From Candidatus Latescibacterota bacterium (GTDB lineage: Bacteria > Latescibacterota > UBA2968 > UBA8231): a DNA stretch of 64,000 bases. The stretch is taken from contig OZ242214.1 in the NCBI GenBank assembly GCA_965206595.1, forward strand, positions 5,120,001 through 5,184,000, given 5' to 3'. Positions 8,297 through 59,302 of the stretch are shown here, in pieces. A program made the position numbers and the translations under genes. Every line of letters starts with the position of its first letter. Position 1 is the first letter of the stretch. The notes below the pieces were generated by a model, which made no database searches, was not told where the DNA came from, and saw only the letters and a list, made by a program, of their open reading frames with translations.

Positions 8297-8500
8297 CTGC
8301 AACACGAGAATTTCCTCGACTCTACCAATGTTTCTGAAATTCTCAAGGAAGAACTGATTAGTTTGGCCTACCGCCTTTCGTGAGCCCTTATTGGAAACCG
8401 GCTCGCTGACCAGTTCCAGTTTCCAAAGCGCTTTGATGTGGGAACACTGTTTATGTACCGGATGAAACAACGCATCATGCGACTTCTGAAGGCCAAACAA
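8297..8500 (+). pseudogene. Degraded 3' gene fragment, tentatively MpaB/rubber-oxygenase (Lcp-like) family C-terminus
   Basis: Frame reads ..LAYRLS*ALIGNRLADQFQFPK..GTLFMYRMKQR; no start codon, internal TGA at 8381; family call is from recalled similarity only. Confidence 0.35.
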
Positions 8501-8626
8501 GTGGGAGTGCCTCCCTCCGGTAACAGGAAACCGAAAAACTCGGCCAGATGGACAAAGCCATCCTCGGTCCGCCGTTTCCATAGCGCCGCGCACTCGCATC
8601 GGTGAACTCGCTCTCGCACTGAGTCG

Positions 8627-10934
8627 ATGACAACTCGGGCGATGACTCCTTCCTCGTTGGAACGCTACGTCACTGCCATTCTCCGCCTTCGGTGGCCGAT
8701 CGTTCTGCTCGCAACGCTGGTCATGCTGGTAACGGCAGCCGGTGTTCCCTTCCTCACCGTTTCGAACGACTATCGCATTCTGTTCAGCGAAGACAATCCG
8801 CAACTCGCCGCTTTCAACGCCTTGGAGAACACCTACTCGGCCTCCAACAGTGCGTTGATCGCCGTTGCGCCGGACGGGGGGCTCGGTCTTCACCCGCGAG
8901 GCGCTTGGCGCGATTGAACAGCTGACCGAAGGTGCGTGGCGCGCGCCCTATTCCAGTCGCGTCAACTCCCTTACGAACTATACCCACAGCGAAGCCTTCG
9001 AAGATGAACTCGTTGTGGCCCCGCTCGTGGAGGACGCCCATTCACTGAGCGATTCCGACGAAGCCCGAATTGAGAGGGTCGCCCTCGGGGCCCCCGAAAT
9101 TTCCGGACGCCTGGTCTCCCATGACGGAGGCACAGCCGGAGTGGCGATCAACTTCATCCTGCCGGAAAACCCGGATCAGGCAGTGGTCGAAATCACCGAT
9201 TATCTCGATTCGCTCCTGTCCGATGCCCGCACCAACCACCCGGACATCGATTATTTCATGACCGGCGATGTGGTCATGAACCGCACGTTCTCCGATGCCA
9301 CGCAAGACGACATGCAGACCCTCACTCCTGTCGTTTTCCTCATCATCGTAGGCGCGACAATCATTCTCCTGCGCTCGGTTCTCGCAACCGTGGCCATCGT
9401 CGCCGTGCTCCTGTTTGTCATCAACACCACCATGGGGTTCGCCGGCTGGAACGGCGTGGTGTTCAGCCCCACCAACGCGGGGGTGCCGATCATTGTCATG
9501 GTCATAGCCATCGCGGATTCAATCCACATCGTCACGAGTGTCCTGCTATGTATAAGGCGCGGTATGGACAGAAAAACGGCGATAGTGGAGTCGGTTCGTA
9601 TCAATGCCTATCCGGTATTTCTAACCTCGGTCACGACGGCGATTGGATTCCTCACGCTCAACGTCTCGGACTCTCCGCCATTTCACGTCTTGGGGAATTA
9701 CGTGGCGTTCGGTGTGTTATCCGCCTTCGCCTACACCATGACGTTCCTGCCCGCATTGCTCTCGATTCTGCCATTGCGCGCTTCCCATGCCCCGTCCGAA
9801 AAGACTGCTTTCTTCGACCGCTTCGCGGACTTTGTCATTGCCCGAAATAGATTCCTGCTTGGCTCCGTCACCTTGGTGGTGGTGGTCCTGATATTCGGGA
9901 TTCCGCGTATCGAGCTGAGCGACAACATGGCGCAGTACTTCGATGAACGTTACCAGTTCCGGCGCGATACGGACTTTGTCATTGAAAACCTTACCGGCCT
10001 GGACAAACTGGATTATTCACTGAACTCGGGCCGCGAAGGGGGCATCACCGATCCGGAGTATCTGCGCAAGGTTGGGGCTTTCGCCGAATGGTACCGGAAG
10101 CAACCGGAAGTGACCCACGTCCAGGCATTTTCCGACATCATGAAACGTCTCAACAAGAACATGCACGAGGACGATCCGGCTTTCTACCGCCTGCCTGAAG
10201 ACCCGAATCTCGCAGCGCAGTACCTGTTGCTTTACGAACTTTCCCTTCCCTTCGGCAGCGACCTCAACGACCGCATCGACGTCGCAAAATCCGCCACACG
10301 CCTGGTCGTCGTTACCAGGAATGCCTGGTCTCGAGATATACGGGAACTCGACAAGCGAGCCCAGGAATGGCTCCAGGGAAATATCCCTGCCTTTGCCCAC
10401 GAAGCATCCGGGCTCAGTGTCGTTTTCGCCCACCTGTCACTGCGGAACATCAACAGCATGTTGCGTGGCACGATCGTGGCCATGGCCCTCATTTCGGTTA
10501 TCCTGATTTGGGTATTCAAAAGCGTTCGGATCGGGCTCCTCAGTCTGCTTCCGAATTTCATCCCTGCCATCATGAGCTTCGGCCTGTGGGGTTATATCGT
10601 AGGCCATGTCGGTATCGCCTCTTCCGTGGTCATCGCCGTTGTATTCGGAATAGTCGTTGACGACACCATTCACTTCCTGAGCAAATATCTGAAGGCCCGC
10701 AGTGAGGGCCATTCAGCGCAGGAATCCGTGCGCTCCGCCTTCCACACCGTGGGACATGCTTTATGGACGACGACCGCGGTCTTGTCGGCGGGCTTTCTGG
10801 TGTTCGCCACATCGGGATTCGAGGTCAGTTGGGCACTCGGTCTTCTGGTCACGACCACCATCGTCTTCGCGCTTGCAGCGGACTTTCTGCTCCTTCCGAC
10901 TCTGCTGATAGCCATCGACCGGAGAAACCCATGA
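8627..10934 (+). CDS. MMPL/RND family lipid transporter, split by a single extra G in a G6 run (8876-8881)
   Basis: Removing one G joins ORF 8627-8917 to ORF 8865-10934 as ..APDGGSVFTREAL..; RND motifs IAIADSIH and GIVVDDTIHFL. Confidence 0.85.
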
Positions 10935-11749
10935 ACTGCGCATGTTTCCCGGCGCTTCCGCTTTTCGCGTCTTGCCTGGTCATTCTGACTTCTCTTTGCG
11001 CGCCGGCACCCGCTCGTTCCGAAAGCTCCACTCCCGAGGAAACCGGGCTGCAAATCGCTCGCGATTCCCGCGCCCGCGAGGAAGGCTTCGGGAACTTTGC
11101 CGCCCGTCAAACCATGGTGCTGCGCAACAAGCACGGACAGGAGAGCCGCCGTCAAATCCGGGTAAAGGTTCTCGAAGTCCCAGAAGACGGCGACAAGAGT
11201 TTGTTTGTGTTCGACGAGCCGCGCGATGTCCAGGGAACGGCGTTGCTCATTCACGCGCACCGCGAAAGCGCGGACGATCAATGGCTTTATCTGCCCGCCC
11301 TGGAACGAGTCAAGCGCATCAGTTCGTCGAACCGGTCCGGCTCCTTCATGGGGAGCGAATTCGCCTATGAAGACCTGACCGCCCAGACCGTGGAAAAATT
11401 CACCTACCGCTACCTGCGCGACGAGCCTTGCGGCGATTTGACATGCACGGTCTCCGAACGCTTCCCCGTGGACAAGAAGTCCGGCTACAAACGCCAGGTG
11501 GTCTGGCGCGACAAGGACGAGCTACGCGTCCGGAAGGTCGAGTACTACGACCGCAAGAATGCCCATCTGAAAACCCTCACCCTGGGGAACTACGAGCAGT
11601 ACCTGGACCGTTACTGGCGCGCCGGCGAGATGACGATGGAGAACCTTCTGACCGGCAAGAGTACCGTGCTGACCTGGACGGACTGCCAGTTCCGGACCGA
11701 CCTCGACGACCGCGACTTCACACGGACGGGGCTGAGACGGGCCCGTTGA
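10931..11749 (+). CDS. Outer membrane lipoprotein-sorting (LolA-like) periplasmic protein
   Basis: Signal peptide; FDEPRDVQGTALL, DDQWLYLPALERVKRISSSNRSGSFMGSEFAYEDL. Confidence 0.88.
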   Translation: MNCACFPALPLFASCLVILTSLCAPAPARSESSTPEETGLQIARDSRAREEGFGNFAARQTMVLRNKHGQESRRQIRVKVLEVPEDGDKSLFVFDEPRDVQGTALLIHAHRESADDQWLYLPALERVKRISSSNRSGSFMGSEFAYEDLTAQTVEKFTYRYLRDEPCGDLTCTVSERFPVDKKSGYKRQVVWRDKDELRVRKVEYYDRKNAHLKTLTLGNYEQYLDRYWRAGEMTMENLLTGKSTVLTWTDCQFRTDLDDRDFTRTGLRRAR

Positions 11750-13008
11750 TGCTGCTTTGGGCCGATCTGTTCCGCGTCGCTGCGGGCGCGGTCTCGATTC
11801 TGGCACTGGTCCTGACCACCGTTGCACACGCCGGAATCGGAATAGATCACCACCGGTTTTCCGGACGATCCAGCATCGAAACCCGATGGTTTCCCGAAAG
11901 GGCTGCTCATGTCGGCCAAGGCGGGCATGCCAGCGGATTTGTAGCGGCGCCAAAGTTTTACCTTGAGGACGCCGACGCCCGAAGCCTTACCCTGGCCCCG
12001 TTCTTTCGCTACGACAACTCGGACTTTCGCCGCACTCATGCCGATTTGCGCGAAGCCTACCTGCTGCTGTTCGGAGAATTCAGCGTTTGCGAATGGGAGC
12101 TGCGGGTGGGCGTAGGACAGGTTTTCTGGGGCGTCACCGAATCGCAGCACCTGGTCGACATCGTCAACCAGATCGACTTCGTCGAACACCCGAACGGAGA
12201 GGCCAAGCTGGGGCAACCCATGATCCATCTCACCTGGTCCGGTGAGTGGGGCGTAATGGAAATACTTGGTCTGCCCTATCACCGCGCACGCACCTTTCCG
12301 GGCCGGTCGGGCCGCCTGCGCCTTCCGCTCGTGGTTTCAGACGAGGATGTCGAGTACGAGAGCGAGGCTGAGGAACGGCACCTGGATCTCGCCGCTCGGT
12401 ACAGTCACAGCTTCGGACTCCTCGACATGGGTGCGAGTTTTTTCAACGGCACGAGCCGGGAGCCGTCTCTGCGGCCGGGCGCACCGGCCTTGGTTCAGCA
12501 CTACGCGCAAATTCGCCAGTTTGGACTGGACGCCCAGCTGACTGTCGGCTCCTGGTTGTTCAAGCTGGAGGGTATTCAACGCGCCGGTGCTATCAACCTG
12601 TCCGGCGAGGAAGAGGATTACGCTGCTGCCGTTCTTGGCGGGGAATACACCTTCTACTCAGCACTGGGCTCGGCCGCCGATCTCAGCCTGCTCGGGGAAT
12701 GGAATCACGATGGACGCGGCCCCAACGCTACCCCGAGCCGCTCACCCAATACGCTCGAGAACGATCTTTTCTTCGCCTCCCGGATTGCGCTCAACGATGT
12801 TCAGGGAACCGAAATTGTGGCCAGTATTCTGGGGGATGTGGACCGTGCCACGCGCGCAATGGCCGTGAAATTTGACCGTCGTTTGTCGGACCGGTGGTCT
12901 CTGCTACTGGAGACCATTTATATCCTCGGCACCGACAAGAAAGATCTCTTCAACTACTGGACAAGACGCGACAGCTTCGCCGACCTTGGGCTGACGTATA
13001 ATTTCTAG
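11749..13008 (+). CDS. Putative outer-membrane beta-barrel protein partnered with MMPL/LolA-like genes
   Basis: Signal peptide, DLREAY, VFWGVTESQHLVDIVNQ, amphipathic strands, C-terminal LTYNF BAM-type signal. Confidence 0.75.
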   Translation: MLLWADLFRVAAGAVSILALVLTTVAHAGIGIDHHRFSGRSSIETRWFPERAAHVGQGGHASGFVAAPKFYLEDADARSLTLAPFFRYDNSDFRRTHADLREAYLLLFGEFSVCEWELRVGVGQVFWGVTESQHLVDIVNQIDFVEHPNGEAKLGQPMIHLTWSGEWGVMEILGLPYHRARTFPGRSGRLRLPLVVSDEDVEYESEAEERHLDLAARYSHSFGLLDMGASFFNGTSREPSLRPGAPALVQHYAQIRQFGLDAQLTVGSWLFKLEGIQRAGAINLSGEEEDYAAAVLGGEYTFYSALGSAADLSLLGEWNHDGRGPNATPSRSPNTLENDLFFASRIALNDVQGTEIVASILGDVDRATRAMAVKFDRRLSDRWSLLLETIYILGTDKKDLFNYWTRRDSFADLGLTYNF

Positions 13009-13029
13009 CCGCCCGAAATCCAATCCCGA

Positions 13030-13983
13030 CTAGCCGGGGACGGAGGCCTTTTCGAGGCCGACCGGAAGGCTGAAACGCACGTTCTCGGCAATACCGTCCA
13101 TGGTCGAGATTTCCAAGTCGGCGTACTCCCCCAGCTGCTCGATCAGCTCGTGCACCAGTTCCTCGGGGGTCGAGGCCCCGGCGGTTATGCCGATACATTC
13201 CTTCCCCTGCAGCCATTCCGGATCGATCTTCGATGGATCCTCTATCAGGTAGCTCGGCACACCGCTGTCATTGCTGACTTCGCACAAGCGGTTCGAGTTG
13301 GAGCTGTTTTGCGCCCCCACCACCAGCACCAAGTCCACCTCTTCGGCGAGGGCTCGCACCGCGGCCTGCCGGTTCTGGGTCGCGTAGCAGATATCCTTTA
13401 CGTCAGGTCCGACGATATTGGGGAACCGCCGCCTCAGGGCTGAGATCACTTCCCGGGTATCGTCGACGGACAAGGTGGTCTGGGTGATGTAGGCGACCTT
13501 CTCCGGATCGCGCACCTCCAGAGTTTCCACCCCTTCCACATCGCTGACCAGAAGCACCGGTCCCGGTATCTGTCCCATGGTGCCCTCCACCTCGGGATGG
13601 CCCTCGTGACCTATAAGGATGATGTCGTATCCATTGCCAGCGTAGCGGCGTCCCTCCTTATGCACCTTGGAGACCAGGGGGCAGGTGGCATCGAGCGGCC
13701 GGAGACCGCGCACCGATGCATCCTCCTCGACCTTTTCCGATACACCGTGAGCGCTGAACACGGTGATTGCTCCATTGGGTATCTGATCTATCTGTTCAAC
13801 GAATCGCACCCCCTTGGCCTTGAGGTTTTCCACCACGCGCGGATTATGGACGATTTCATGTCGCACAAAAATCGGAGGGCCGTATTGTTCCAGAGCCGCT
13901 TCAACGATCTCGATCGCGCGCTCGACTCCGGCACAAAATCCGCGCGGTTGGGCTAATATGACTCGCATCTTTCTCTCTTTCAT
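13030..13983 (-). CDS. ispH: 4-hydroxy-3-methylbut-2-enyl diphosphate reductase
   Basis: [40 protein letters not shown]; alternative start at 13968. Confidence 0.97.
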
Positions 13984-15119
13984 GGATGGCCCGGTACACT
14001 CTTCAAACTTCTGCCTTCAGGGCTGCTGCCTTCGCGGGAATCGGGATAAGGTAAGGACTTTCCCACGACCTGCATTTCCACGCCGGTGCGAGGCAGGCCT
14101 CGAGTCAGCACCTTGAAGAAGAGCTTCAGGGCGAGGTTCGAGCGCGCCAGGCTGCTGGTGACAACGGTGACCGCCCACACGCTCCGCCGTGAAATTTTAA
14201 CTTCCCGCCCATCCCTGAACGTCGGTTTCGAGTGAATCCGGCGCAGGGTAAGCACGGCCATCCCCAATGCCCAAAGGCAATGGCGGCGGATGCCTGTTTC
14301 GTGGTTCGGAATGATCAGAATGAACCGCAACGCGTTCGCAAGGTGGAGGCGGGCGATCGCCACCAGTTCGAACAGTCCTTCGATGAAGCCGGGGTCTTTT
14401 TGTCTCGCCGGCAGGGTACTCAAGTCGCAACCTGCCTCGAGGAAGATGTCGCGCGGCAGCCAGCACGCACCCCGGCGGCGGTCGTCCCATACATCCTTGA
14501 GGATGTTGGTCATCTGCAGTCCCTGCCCGAAGGAAACCGAAAGGGCGAGCAGCTCTTGGCGATGTTCCGCGATCTCTTCGGAGTATTCGCAGAACAGTTC
14601 GGTAAGCATCTCGCCGACCACACCGGCGACGTGATAACAGTAACGGTCGAGGTGTGGAAGATCATCCAGGCCATCGGGCGTCGCGTTCAGTTGAAACTCG
14701 GCCATTCCACGCGACATGATCGTCACGCAGCGTTCCAACGCGCTTCGCTGGGCAGGACCAAAAAAGTGGGCGATGCGGATGACCCGGGCGGAGTTGGCGA
14801 TCAGGTCATGTTCGCTTTCAGTAGTCGAGGAAGACAGCAAGGCGCCGAGCTCGCTCGCGAAAGGCTCCGGTTCTTCCCGGCCGGCAACGACCTCGACGAA
14901 ACGTTCGGAGAACGCCTGCTTCTGTATGGGGGACAGCACCGGCTCGTCCTCGATGGTGTCCGTGATTCGGCACAGCAGGTAGGCATTGCCTACCACGTCG
15001 CGCAGCGAGCCGGGAAGCTGTGGAATGGTGAGGGCAAAAGTCCGGGACACCCCTTGCAGGATGTCCGTCTGGTAAACGATATCGCTGTTCCTCATCTCCT
15101 TTGAGAGGGACGCCGTCAT
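13980..15119 (-). CDS. Squalene/phytoene synthase family, most like single-enzyme squalene synthases
   Basis: [48 protein letters not shown]. Confidence 0.88.
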
Positions 15120-15205: not shown

Positions 15206-15772
15206 TCAGCCCTTTGCCACCGCCGGAATACCATACCGGTGAAGGGTGCTCTCCAGAGTCGGTCTTCCCAGGCGAATCCGTCGATCGTTCAGCAGATAGG
15301 AGAACAGGTACCCGGCGCCGAGCATGAGGATATCGATGAGGAAACAGTACATGACGGCCCTGTCTGGATACACGTCCTTCAAATACCCTACATACAATGG
15401 CCCGAAAATCCCGGCGGCCGCCCACGCCGTCAGGACGGCGCCGTAGATCGTCGACATCTTCTTTGTACCGAACACATCGAGAACGAAGGGAGGCATGGTG
15501 GCGAATCCGCCGCCGAAACAGAGCAGGACGTAGCAGACCAGGACCGAGAAAATCCAAGGGTTGGTTTCCGTCATGAGAATCCCGAAGACGACCATCTGGC
15601 TGGCCAGAAGTATCCTGAAAACCGTAACCCGGCCGAAGCGGTCGGAAAGCAATCCCCAGAAGAGACGCCCCAGGCCGTTGCAAATCGAGCTTACGGCAAT
15701 GAGCGTCGCGCCGTACTCGGCAAGCATCGTCGGCTCGATCGAGGTATCCGCCAATCCCCAGATCTCCTGGAG
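15206..15772 (-). pseudogene. C-terminal half of an OFA-family MFS transporter; 5' half lost
   Basis: NGLGRLFWGLLSDRFGR, GGGFATMPPFVLDVFG, YGAVLTAWAAAGIFGP; homology stops at ~15772. Confidence 0.75.
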
Positions 15773-15965: not shown

Positions 15966-16424
15966 TCAGTGTAGATTCTGACGGATGAAATGCACGACTT
16001 CGGGAATGTGCTCGGTGGGGTCAACATCGCGCATGATCGCCGCCAGATTGCCGCCCGCGTCAATGACGAACGTCGAGCGCTGAAAACCCTTCCCGTCTTC
16101 GCCGCAAACCCCGTACGTGGCACAGACGGAGCCGTCCGTGTCCGACAGCAGGGGGGCGCTCAAATCATATTTTTGGATAAAGGCCTTGTGGCTGGTCAGG
16201 TCGTCTCGACTGATGCCGACCAGAACCGTTTCGAGGGCGTCGAACTCCGGTTTCGCATCACGGAAACCGATTGCTTCCCGCGTTCACCCGGGGGTATCGT
16301 CTTTGGGATAGAAGAACAGCACGACCTTGCGACCGCGGAGCTTGGTGAGGCTGAGGGTACCGCCGGTGCTGGCGGGCAACTCGAATTCCGGGGCCGGGTT
16401 TCCCGTCCGGACTTTAGCCGACAT
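15966..16424 (-). CDS. bcp: BCP/PrxQ peroxiredoxin containing selenocysteine (UGA at 16284-16286)
   Basis: GGAGG RBS; MSAKVRTGNPAPEFEL..FFYPKDDTPG-TGA-TREAIGFRD..VGISRD..PLLSD..RSTFVID is one frame with TGA at the peroxidatic Cys position. Confidence 0.88.
16237..16283 (-). promoter_or_regulatory. Putative bacterial SECIS hairpin
   Basis: Stem CGGUUUC/GAAACCG starts 15 nt after the UGA, with a G-containing apical loop (CGUGAUGC); lower GAA/UUC and GCG/CGC pairs are possible. Confidence 0.65.
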
Positions 16425-42863: not shown

Positions 42864-43748
42864 CTATTCCCTGGTCCTGCAATGAAAAGACCGGACCCCC
42901 TTTGCCGTCAGCTGCGAATGAGCCGACGCGGCGGCGATCCGGTCGTCGAATATGCCGTAAACGGCGGAGCCGCTACCGGTCAGGGATGCGATTGCGGCCC
43001 CCGCGGCCAGCAGTTGCTCTCTGGTTTCTGCGACGATGGGTTTGGCTCGTTCGACGATCGGTTGGAAGTCGTTCTCAATCAACTCGACCAAGCGATTAGC
43101 ATCGACGCGCCCGCCGCCAAGCGAACCGGCGAATATAGCGTAAGCAGAAACAGGTGTCAATTTGCCGCAGCGCAGGTGTGCATACGCCCACACTGTATCG
43201 ATCGCCACCCCGGGATAGGCGATGACGTACTCGAACCGTTCGCAGGAAACCGGCTCGACGATATCACCGCGCCCCCGCATAACGGCGGTTCCCCCGCGGA
43301 CCAGGAAGGGAACATCCGACCCGAGCGAAGCCCCCCAAGTGGCCAAGGTATCGATACTGGGCTGGACCCCGGTGATCGCGGCCATCCCCCGCAGTACGGC
43401 CGCGGCATCAGCGCTGCCTCCACCGAGGCCGGCACCGATTGGGATCCTCTTTTCGAGATGAATGTGAACAGGCCGGTTATCCCCCTTCATCTTCTCGCGA
43501 CACAGCCTGAGGGCGCGCATCACCAGATTGTCGTCGCTCGCCAGCTCCGAAGCGGAACAACTCATTCCGTCAGAGGAAGCAGCGATGAACTCAAGCCGGT
43601 CGCTGAGATCGACCGTTTGACAGATACTGACCAAGTCGTGGAAGCCATCCTCCCGTTTGCCGAGGATCTTCAAACCCAGGTTGACCTTGGCATTCGCAAT
43701 TTCAACGGAAAGCGGGCCCTTTCCAATTTCTCCAGAATCCCGGATCAC
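42864..43748 (-). CDS. ispE: 4-diphosphocytidyl-2-C-methyl-D-erythritol kinase (start uncertain)
   Basis: AKVNLGLKILGKREDGFH, KRIPIGAGLGGGSADAA, LGSDVPF, LTGSGSAVYG. Confidence 0.95.
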   Translation of the reverse strand: MIRDSGEIGKGPLSVEIANAKVNLGLKILGKREDGFHDLVSICQTVDLSDRLEFIAASSDGMSCSASELASDDNLVMRALRLCREKMKGDNRPVHIHLEKRIPIGAGLGGGSADAAAVLRGMAAITGVQPSIDTLATWGASLGSDVPFLVRGGTAVMRGRGDIVEPVSCERFEYVIAYPGVAIDTVWAYAHLRCGKLTPVSAYAIFAGSLGGGRVDANRLVELIENDFQPIVERAKPIVAETREQLLAAGAAIASLTGSGSAVYGIFDDRIAAASAHSQLTAKGVRSFHCRTRE

Positions 43749-43753
43749 AAAAC

Positions 43754-43782
43754 TTGACCTCCACAAGTACGATCCATATAAT
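43754..43782 (+). promoter_or_regulatory. Sigma70 promoter for the TPR operon
   Basis: TTGACC, 17-bp spacer, TATAAT. Confidence 0.65.
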
Positions 43783-57724: not shown

Positions 57725-59302
57725 GGGCGCCTTAGCCAATTGTTATAGCGTAATACAGGTGCGTATATGTATATTTTACAATACGTTGCCTTCTGCTGCC
57801 GCATCCCCTGCGGCGCGCTCCCCTGATTTCAGAAAGAAGGGGAGCGATGAGTGCCATTCTTTCTCTGGAAGTCTTTCAGGAGCGGCAGTGTCAGGAGCGC
57901 TTTCGAAGCCGAGCGCATGCCGCCTTGGACCGGTTCCAGGATCGGCTGGAGACCCCAATGAGCGAGCCCGGATCTTGTGCGCCGACGTTGATGGAGATCA
58001 CCGCGGCGGTGTCCCAAGAGCGCTGCGGGTTCACCGCGGCGTTGGTGGAAGCCTTCATCGAACGCCGCCACGGACCGTGCTTGGGGCAAGAAGAGGCGGC
58101 CTGCCCCAAGTGTGAGCGTCTTCTGCAGGCTAAGGCCGTCGCGTTCGCGCACGGTGGAAACGCTGCTGGGTGCGGTGACCTTGGAGCGGCCCTATTTCTA
58201 CTGCGCGGCCTGTCACCACGGATTCTATCCGCTGGACGAGGCCCTGGGTCTGTCGGGGCAGCGCAAGCAGTGGGACGTGCAGCAGGCCGGGGTCAAGCTG
58301 GGGCTGGAGATGCCCCACCAGCGCGCCTCGAAGCTGCTGGACGAGCTCACCGACGCATCGATGAGCGACTGTGCGCTCCACGACGTGCTGCACCGGACCG
58401 GGTCGTTGCAGGTGCTGCATGTCTGTCCGGATGCGGCCGATATCCAGGATCGCATCGCCCAGGCGGCCGCCTGGCGCAAGTGGCGGCCCATCGTGGTGTT
58501 GGCTATCGATGCGGCCGAGGTGCCCAGTCGCCCGGAGACGGCCAAAGGCACCCGGCCGGGCCGCAAGAAGAGCCGGGCTCGGCGCCAGCGCTGGCAGGGC
58601 GAGTATCGCGAAGCCAAGGGATTCCGTTTCTACCTGGTCGACGACGAACGCATCGTGCACTTGATCTCCTGGCACCAGATGGGCGACGAACAGGCCTTCG
58701 GCGCGGCCTTGCGCCAGGTCAAGGAGGCCGGCCTGCTGATCCCGGAGGACCAGGTGCGCCTGTGTGCCATCGGGGACGGAGCCCCGTGGATCTGGAAGTG
58801 GGTGGAAGAGCTGTTCCCCAGCGCCCGTCAGATCCTCGACTACTATCACTGCAGCCGCTACCTGCACGCGGTGGCAGAGGCCCAATACGGGGCCGATGCG
58901 GAACGCGCCACCCAGTGGCTGGAAGCGAGTCTGGCGCGCCTGTTCTGCGGCGAGGGCGCCGGCGTGGTCTGGGGGCTGCAGCGCATGCAGCCGGTCTCCG
59001 AAGAAGCCGACGAGGCGATCGCCTCGGCCCTGAGCTACTTGCACAAGCGCCTGCACCAGGTGGATTTCGGCAGTCACCGCAAGGGCGGATACCCGATCGG
59101 CTCGGGTGCGATCGAATCGGCGCATCGCTTCATCGGCCATGTTCGTCTGAAACGATCCGGCGCTTGGTGGTATAAGGAAAACAGCAACGCCATTCTCGCC
59201 TTGCGCTGCGCCCTATACAATGGAACCCTTGATCGGGTCTTTCAGCAGCACCGCGATACCCTCGAACGACCACCGTAATCGCAACAATCAGCTAAGGCTC
59301 CC
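57725..59302 (+). mobile_element. ISKra4-like insertion sequence
   Basis: Inverted repeats GGGCGCCTTAGCCAATTGTT / GGGAGCCTTAGCTGATTGTT; flanking 8-bp near-duplication CAACTAAT / CAACCAAT. Confidence 0.85.
57847..59278 (+). pseudogene. ISKra4-like transposase with a +1 frameshift near 58130
   Basis: CPKC in one frame continues as RTVETLLG..RPYFYC..C..GFYPLD, GDGAPWIW, LDYYH, IGSGAIES in the next frame. Confidence 0.8.

Follow-up and report, generated by a model that had tools for sequence, protein, structure and literature searches.

Our analysis concerns a stretch of 64,000 nucleotides from a Candidatus Latescibacterota bacterium (contig OZ242214.1, positions 5,120,001 to 5,184,000; hereafter the window, with positions counted from its first letter), and within it a locus where the genes for a predicted squalene synthase (sqs) and for IspH face those of a putative lipid exporter (Table 1). 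The latter encode an RND transporter of the MMPL/HAE3 type, a periplasmic carrier of the LolA fold and an outer-membrane barrel, together called the triad below. The original prediction, made from the letters alone, had described two translationally coupled units that converge with a gap of 21 bp, and both the overlaps (ATGA/TGATG, at 10931-10934, 11747-11751 and 13980-13983) and the gap (13009-13029) can be read in the sequence. Its identification of the carrier, the barrel, ispH and a squalene-synthase-type gene held up, all four being open frames; ispH exceeds the NCBIfam equivalog cut-off, and the synthase-type gene was recovered in Pfam/NCBIfam scans and by its PDB matches. The RND gene, which had been taken as single and intact, actually lies in two frames that overlap (8627-8917 and 8865-10934), the break falling at a run of six G, and the transport unit begins not at 8627 but further upstream, with the relic of an Lcp/MpaB-type oxygenase gene. 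The oxygenase, the broken MMPL gene, the frequent occurrence of the triad apart from isoprenoid genes and a precedent for this kind of transport, AmeABCD (PMC6394551), had all been missed.

Table 1. Features of the cassette locus, in window coordinates.
Feature	Position	Strand	Basis
Oxygenase relic, Lcp/MpaB-type (PF09995): some 55 codons from the 3' part, interrupted by an in-frame stop; remainder lost	8339-8503	+	Homology and profile
RND gene (MMPL/HAE3-type), 5' piece: first transmembrane segment and beginning of the first periplasmic loop	8627-8875	+	Aligns to residues 1-80 of intact homologues
G6 run, break of the RND reading frame	8876-8881	+	11 of 11 aligned homologous locus proteins read through
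RND gene (MMPL/HAE3-type), 3' piece with both acidic proton-relay motifs (IADSIH, VDDTIH)	8880-10934	+	PF03176, E 5e-33
Periplasmic LolA-fold protein (PF17131), 272 aa, signal-like N-terminal stretch	10931-11749	+	E 2e-61; PDB 3bk5, E 9e-83
Outer-membrane beta-barrel, 419 aa, 18 strands, OprD/AlgE-like shape, C-terminal Phe	11749-13008	+	Fold model; no Pfam family
ispH (LytB), cassette type	13030-13983	-	NF002188, 476.8 bits against a cut-off of 420
Single-subunit bacterial squalene synthase (sqs)	13980-15119	-	PF00494; best PDB matches are squalene synthases

The window copy and its apparent decay

The product of sqs carries the motifs with recognised roles in squalene synthases, namely the flap motif, two Asp-rich motifs, the Tyr/Gln motifs and a basic C-terminal motif (VKISRR), all present in cyclase-linked relatives as well, and it can be aligned to the solved enzymes. 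Its score against TIGR01559 (104 of 287 bits) is low, and so is that of a control linked to the squalene-hopene cyclase gene shc (locus L066, 124 bits); the HpnC, HpnD and CrtB models score lower. By family, PDB matches and motifs, we assign the protein to the single-subunit bacterial squalene synthases.

The best NCBIfam model for the RND protein is HAE3 (TIGR00921), with 149.6 of 351.9 bits, a score below the cut-off that was obtained on the broken protein. Against the HpnN model, the 689-aa piece reaches 94.7 of 751.85 bits, with 29% identity over 136 aa to a real HpnN, and the BstA model gives 23.6 of 1400 bits; judged by these scores, the transporter is neither HpnN nor BstA. Among its best 120 database relatives, those that are named come from metagenome-assembled genomes (MAGs) of Gemmatimonadetes/Gemmatimonadota. 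The carrier also matches PDB 4z48 and 3buu and, partially, DUF1329. The barrel was modelled with a mean predicted local distance difference score (pLDDT) of 94.3 and has 18 strands by our count; it is closest in shape to channels of the OprD family and to AlgE (OccD3, Z 23.9, root-mean-square deviation (rmsd) 3.1, 303 residues aligned), and the nearest Atlas cluster that has a family carries DUF1302 on 22% of its members.

Two of these genes are damaged. The oxygenase relic is 51% identical to the oxygenase of locus L003 (E 2.5e-10) and 80% identical over 55 aa to the database protein P0201, is matched by all 120 oxygenase homologues and is the sole match to the family profile (E 1.4e-14) across the six frames of the window. 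As for the RND gene, 118 of its best 120 database relatives measure 744-768 aa, including the closest, P0392, which is intact at 763 aa. The 3' piece is 95% identical to P0392 and the 5' piece just 77%; to other relatives the 5' piece averages 70%, where P0392 scores 82%. Given this low identity of the 5' piece, a plain homopolymer error at the G run would not explain the break. A genuine break where two sequences recombined, or divergence once the gene had been inactivated, is no less likely, and an assembly chimera could also have produced the pattern. With a frameshift at this point in the MMPL gene the window copy looks decayed, and its transport arm is decaying. Since the oxygenase is dead in the source genome and the RND gene is broken as sequenced, what still functions there is probably limited to precursor supply and squalene synthesis. 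The window copy is thus a poor specimen for testing, for which loci L006, L025 and L039, introduced below, are better suited.

A tblastn search of the 64-kb window, using 16 locus proteins, matched no cyclase, epoxidase-cyclase, P450 or Rieske protein, and the further window reading frames scanned (41 + 16) contained no member of a desaturase or epoxidase family, in keeping with the earlier claim that no such gene lies nearby.

Recurrent linkage of sqs, ispH, oxygenase and triad

The window locus is one of a series. A single genome scan, with 50 aligned synthases as the query, gave 79 related loci (the best 80 of 593 confirmed); these sample the close relatives and do not amount to a census. 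The synthase tree splits into side A, holding the window and 35 loci, and side B, with 44; the split received a Shimodaira-Hasegawa-like approximate likelihood ratio (SH-aLRT) support of 97 in a quick tree that contained one junk row, and 99/97 in a rebuilt tree of 66 rows from which the junk row and 19 side-B loci were left out. Neighbouring genes were counted within 10 kb, and 30 of the 35 side-A and 27 of the 44 side-B loci are at least 20 kb long. At least one triad gene lies near sqs in 15/35 side-A loci, eight of which have all three, and in 0/44 on side B (Fisher p 6e-7, a value that overstates the evidence since the loci are related). ispH is present in 15 side-A loci, including 12 of the 15 with triad genes, and in none on side B; ispA was found in 3/35 and ispG in 4/35 side-A loci. 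The oxygenase is confined to triad loci: 8 of the 15 have it and the remaining 64 loci do not. A cyclase was found in this range in 0/35 side-A loci versus 16/44 on side B, six of whose loci have HpnN. The cassette thus consists of oxygenase-MMPL-LolA-like-barrel and sqs-ispH, with ispA and ispG in some copies, and its recurrence in other loci rules out an artefact or a chance adjacency unique to the source genome.

Triad-linked copies occur in Gammaproteobacteria, Alphaproteobacteria and Acidobacteriota, and side A also includes Gemmatimonadota and Rhodothermota; judging by taxon names (Ca. Porisulfidus, Ca. Poriferihabitaceae), the cassette is apparently associated with sponges. Flanks vary from locus to locus and gene order and orientation are shuffled: in L006 the oxygenase, MMPL, carrier, barrel, ispA, sqs and ispH genes all point in one direction, while the convergent layout of the window recurs in L007, L017 and L025. 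In 6/7 intact cases the gene immediately downstream of the oxygenase, in the same orientation, is a transport gene. Despite these rearrangements and unrelated insertion sites, the linkage is kept across synthases that are only 58-77% identical. The window ispH is 76-85% identical to the cassette ispH in 9 of the 10 loci compared. The LolA-like and ispH gene trees were mostly unresolved, so we correlated distances instead (Mantel tests): those of the LolA-like protein follow the synthase with rho 0.61 (n 14, p 0.003), those of the barrel with 0.57 and those of IspH with 0.53, host kinship contributing to all of these correlations. We saw no side-specific change in the active site of the synthases, where the two sides differ only at positions 294 and 317.

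The original prediction had raised the possibility of a horizontally acquired cassette. Mobility is supported by the linkage across unrelated bacteria, but the GC and codon profile is not diagnostic: the GC content (57-61%) and third-position GC (0.69-0.77) of the cassette lie below the flanks (GC 62-68%) but equal those of housekeeping genes at 37-55 kb, and we rejected composition as proof of transfer. Transposase matches were found in 11/35 side-A and 0/44 side-B loci, a biased comparison because the queries were taken from side A. Matches to sqs in the plasmid collection, all about 30% identical, were set aside as uninformative.

The intact oxygenases of the related loci indicate what the window has lost. 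All three that were scanned match PF09995, and the oxygenase has 2495 relatives among 7054 candidates. A model (pLDDT 86.7) matches Lcp with Z 30.1 (rmsd 3.5, 335 residues aligned) and t-anethole oxygenase with Z 19.1, the next match reaching only 4.3. In a sequence alignment with LcpK30 the equivalents of R164, R195 and H198 are kept; the heme His, equivalent to His198, is the invariant H170, and the equivalent of Arg164, R136, is present in 6/7 locus copies. No signal-like N-terminus was seen on the cassette oxygenase. The roles of the Lcp residues, among them the heme ligand and the catalytic acid Glu148, have been described (PMC12724181). The rubber oxygenase Lcp and MpaB' both cleave isoprenoid C=C bonds (10.1101/524025, PMC12724181), the latter cutting a farnesyl double bond within a biosynthetic pathway (10.1101/524025). 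The cassette oxygenase is likely a heme enzyme whose substrate is an isoprenoid alkene, and its presence points to an oxidised product; the outcome may be either C=C cleavage or a milder oxygenation. Oxygenase matches in the plasmid collection were discarded as evidence, being 32% identical or less.

Several other genes near sqs in the related loci were recorded. Two sqs paralogues, in tandem or near each other, occur in L017, L025, L036, L039 and L040, and in several of them the flap motif or the basic motif at the C-terminus is altered; it is possible that such pairs split the half-reactions between them. A fusion of GPP34 (GOLPH3-like) and cytochrome P450 lies beside a KshA-type Rieske gene in L025 (6410-8512) and L030 (16008-18035), both of whose cassettes have no oxygenase. 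In a Rhodothermales MAG (L031, 6401-11002) a split GPP34-P450 and a sulfotransferase stand directly upstream of a side-A sqs, which hints at a sulfated squalene derivative. L027 (9965-20680), close to the A/B split, is a sterol cluster of Ca. Azophilus with sqs, SdmB-like, SdmA-like, ERG24-like and P450 genes and a fused epoxidase-oxidosqualene cyclase; its gene order is that of the msb cluster, but with sqs attached. Genes for STAS anti-sigma-antagonists, in some cases with PP2C or kinase partners, adjoin the cassette in L003, L006, L007, L017 and L039 and are possible regulators of it.

A proposed pathway and its alternatives

The explanation we favour, to which we would give an even chance, is that the window holds a copy of a mobile squalene cassette that has no cyclase, with squalene made, oxidised or cleaved, and exported by the RND protein, the LolA-fold carrier and the barrel. 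IspH yields isopentenyl and dimethylallyl diphosphate, IspA makes farnesyl diphosphate (FPP), and squalene synthase joins two FPP into squalene, a lipid that resides in the inner membrane. IspH and IspA would thus feed the synthase, whose squalene would enter the inner membrane. The cytoplasmic Lcp/MpaB-type heme oxygenase could attack a trisubstituted double bond of squalene, giving an acyclic apo-terpenoid or an oxygenation short of cleavage. The proton-driven RND protein would extract this product, or unmodified squalene, from the inner membrane; the LolA-fold protein, in contact with the RND protein, would carry the lipid delivered to it across the periplasm, and the barrel would release the cargo to the outer membrane or outside. 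Of the terpenoid synthesis-and-export system that had been proposed for the locus, the linkage supports a mobile, cyclase-less terpenoid cassette, and the triad is tied to isoprenoid genes in several bacterial classes; squalene as cargo and outward transport are parts that we infer. A tentative extension, which we consider somewhat unlikely, would make this a terpenoid pathway shared horizontally across sponge microbiomes, in which a new Lcp-fold squalene oxygenase with a changed active site yields acyclic apo-triterpenoids or oxidised squalene, and a dedicated RND-LolA-barrel route takes these, or squalene, out of the cell to the sponge or to sterol-making neighbours.

Several results weigh against the favoured explanation. 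Of the side-A loci, 20/35 have no triad gene at all, and because the loci are related their counts are not independent. The distance correlations of sqs with MMPL (p 0.056) and with the oxygenase (p 0.09) fall short of significance. The triad itself is generic and much commoner than its link to sqs: 2048 barrel relatives were counted at the level of 50%-identity clusters, and the best 120 MMPL clusters are all at least 84% identical, versus only 11 sqs clusters that reach 79%. Within the top-120 lists, only 2 of 120 MMPL matches apparently share a contig with an sqs match; the match P0446 apparently lies on the contig of L024, whose side-B sqs has no triad within 10 kb. All four plasmid-collection triads inspected, among 19 matches, are without sqs, ispH and oxygenase and adjoin instead a type I polyketide synthase (PKS), an AMP-binding enzyme or a TetR gene. 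In the oxygenase, moreover, the residues E148, K167 and T168 of Lcp align to Ser/Ala, Gln and Asn, although a conserved Glu114 nearby might substitute for Glu148.

The frequency with which both modules occur alone raises the question of whether a generic lipid-transport triad and an independent sqs-ispH unit met once on mobile DNA and have been inherited together without a joint function. Shuffled order and orientation, the many partial copies and the transposase matches (from queries taken from these loci) are all compatible with such a history, but chance cargo would be expected to separate, and the link has persisted through rearrangements at the synthase divergence given above; we consider this quite unlikely. 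A Sulfitobacter plasmid (L002, 1-10789) carries MMPL and LolA-like genes of this type immediately after a type I PKS, which offers another candidate link to triad cargo.

A second alternative, which we find unlikely, is that sqs-ispH supplies a hopene or oxidosqualene cyclase encoded elsewhere and that the triad moves a cyclic lipid, replacing HpnN-HpnM or BstABC. The synthase motifs are identical to those of cyclase-linked relatives, L027, near the A/B split, is a sterol cluster, the Rieske and GPP34-P450 genes of L025 and L030 belong to families that include steroid enzymes, and sterol genes of sponge symbionts can be dispersed, with sqs on another scaffold (PMC7074536). It does not sit well, however, with the lack of a cyclase within 10 kb in same-side loci or with the low scores of the RND protein for HpnN and BstA. 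Furthermore, an alkene-cleaving oxygenase has, to our knowledge, no place in known hopanoid clusters.

The direction of transport could also be reversed, the oxygenase-triad operon serving uptake and breakdown or detoxification of host or dietary isoprenoids and lying near sqs-ispH via shared isoprenoid pools. Lcp itself is catabolic, growth of Thalassolituus on a C28 alkane induces a fused MMPL-LolA-like protein and the porin-like protein next to it (PMC6304351), and P. putida requires DUF1302, DUF1329 and RND genes for growth on fatty esters (10.1101/2020.07.04.188060). We nevertheless give this a low probability: among the clusters common to cassette loci there was no recurring family for beta-oxidation or terpene utilisation, the recurring partners (ispH, ispA, ispG and a second sqs) are anabolic, and the relative that has been tested, AmeABCD, behaves as an exporter.

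In the window, the 3' remnant of a major facilitator superfamily transporter of the L-lactate/oxalate-formate type (15206-15730, minus strand), without its 5' half, lies directly upstream of sqs and may mark the cassette edge. Beyond it, a BCP-like AhpC/TSA peroxiredoxin gene (15966-16424, minus strand) has a TGA at codon 47 (16284-16286), after a DDTPG motif and at the position expected for the catalytic Cys, and its frame is open for 152 residues if this TGA encodes selenocysteine; a hairpin follows the TGA but is no better than those of shuffled sequences. The flanks (5642-34681) hold five PhyH-family dioxygenases, several Gfo/Idh/MocA dehydrogenases and enolase-superfamily genes, with ispE at 42864-43766 and an ISKra4 transposase at 58112-59278. 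We found no convincing terminal or target-site repeats around the cassette, and promoter and terminator scans of the region stayed at chance level.

Relation to known systems

MMPL/LolA-like/barrel triads are very common, as the number of barrel clusters shows, and their cargo is mostly unknown; the adjoining biosynthetic enzyme makes the cargo directly testable here. The oxygenase is a candidate new squalene-modifying enzyme. If the tentative extension above is true, the cassette would provide the first biosynthetic cargo for triads of this family and would be one candidate for the core terpene clusters that sponge microbiomes share and that await description. The core common to sponge species consists mainly of terpene families that were left undescribed (PMC9426513), and many shared, unassigned sponge terpene clusters have been reported in studies that, in the parts drawn on, do not describe this cassette (PMC9426513, PMC9864124); the supplement text of PMC9426513 has no match for squalene, MMPL or LytB. 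One sponge metagenome contains 109 unexplained squalene synthases (PMC7074536), and the squalene synthase transcripts in a demosponge are reported, citing earlier work, to be bacterial (PMC10070321). A squalene export route would thus bear on the source of sponge sterol precursors and biomarkers. In the open-licence literature (subscription journals being outside this scope) we found no description of sqs with the triad or the oxygenase, and no paper on a sponge symbiont mpaB.

Among the lipid-type clusters of sponge symbionts, SUP and swf are likewise spread over several symbiont phyla (PMC9426513), whereas the cassette is terpenoid, not polyketide or fatty acid, and has its own trans-envelope module. 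The msb sterol cluster of a sponge gammaproteobacterium (PMC7074536) has symbiont squalene metabolism in common with it. The RND, periplasmic and outer-membrane components of BstABC are a further likeness, but the cassette has no epoxidase-cyclase, its RND protein scores very low for BstA and its partners have other folds. Hopanoid clusters with a single-subunit sqs, shc and HpnN share its synthase family and motifs, an RND gene and nearby genes of the methylerythritol phosphate pathway; the cassette, however, has no cyclase, hpnG or hpnH, its RND protein falls far under the HpnN cut-off, its partners are a LolA-fold carrier and a barrel and not of the MlaC type, and its synthase lies across a supported split of the tree. 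The oxygenase shares its fold and the equivalents of the heme His198, Arg164 and Arg195 with Lcp, MpaB', Nro1 and t-anethole oxygenase (PF09995), but differs from the Lcp group in Glu148, Lys167 and Thr168 (by sequence alignment), in having no signal-like N-terminus and in its linkage to sqs and a putative exporter.

The nearest likeness to the transport arm is AmeABCD of Castellaniella defragrans, which pairs an HAE3 RND protein with partners of the LolA and DUF1302 families and behaves as a monoterpene exporter; its deletion reduces tolerance to monoterpenes and increases dye accumulation (PMC6394551). Both systems combine an RND protein, of the HAE3 type in Ame and probably so in the window, a periplasmic protein of the LolA superfamily and an outer-membrane protein, Ame acts on apolar terpenes, and 3BK5, named as a member of the superfamily in the AmeABCD paper (PMC6394551), is the closest solved relative of the window carrier. 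A further related operon is reported to be induced by iron limitation (PMC10434189). Besides AmeC, its fourth protein, AmeABCD comprises a DUF1329 carrier of 451 aa and a DUF1302 barrel of 605 aa, and its genes belong to a catabolic island, whereas the window has a 272-aa PF17131 carrier, a 419-aa barrel without a Pfam match and biosynthetic partners; there is no space or reading frame for AmeC (COG4447) in the window operon and no such family among the recurring locus clusters scanned. The transport arm would work like AmeABCD without being a member of it, since AmeC is absent and the carrier and barrel are different. The cassette as a whole is real, apparently undescribed, and assembled from known kinds of parts.

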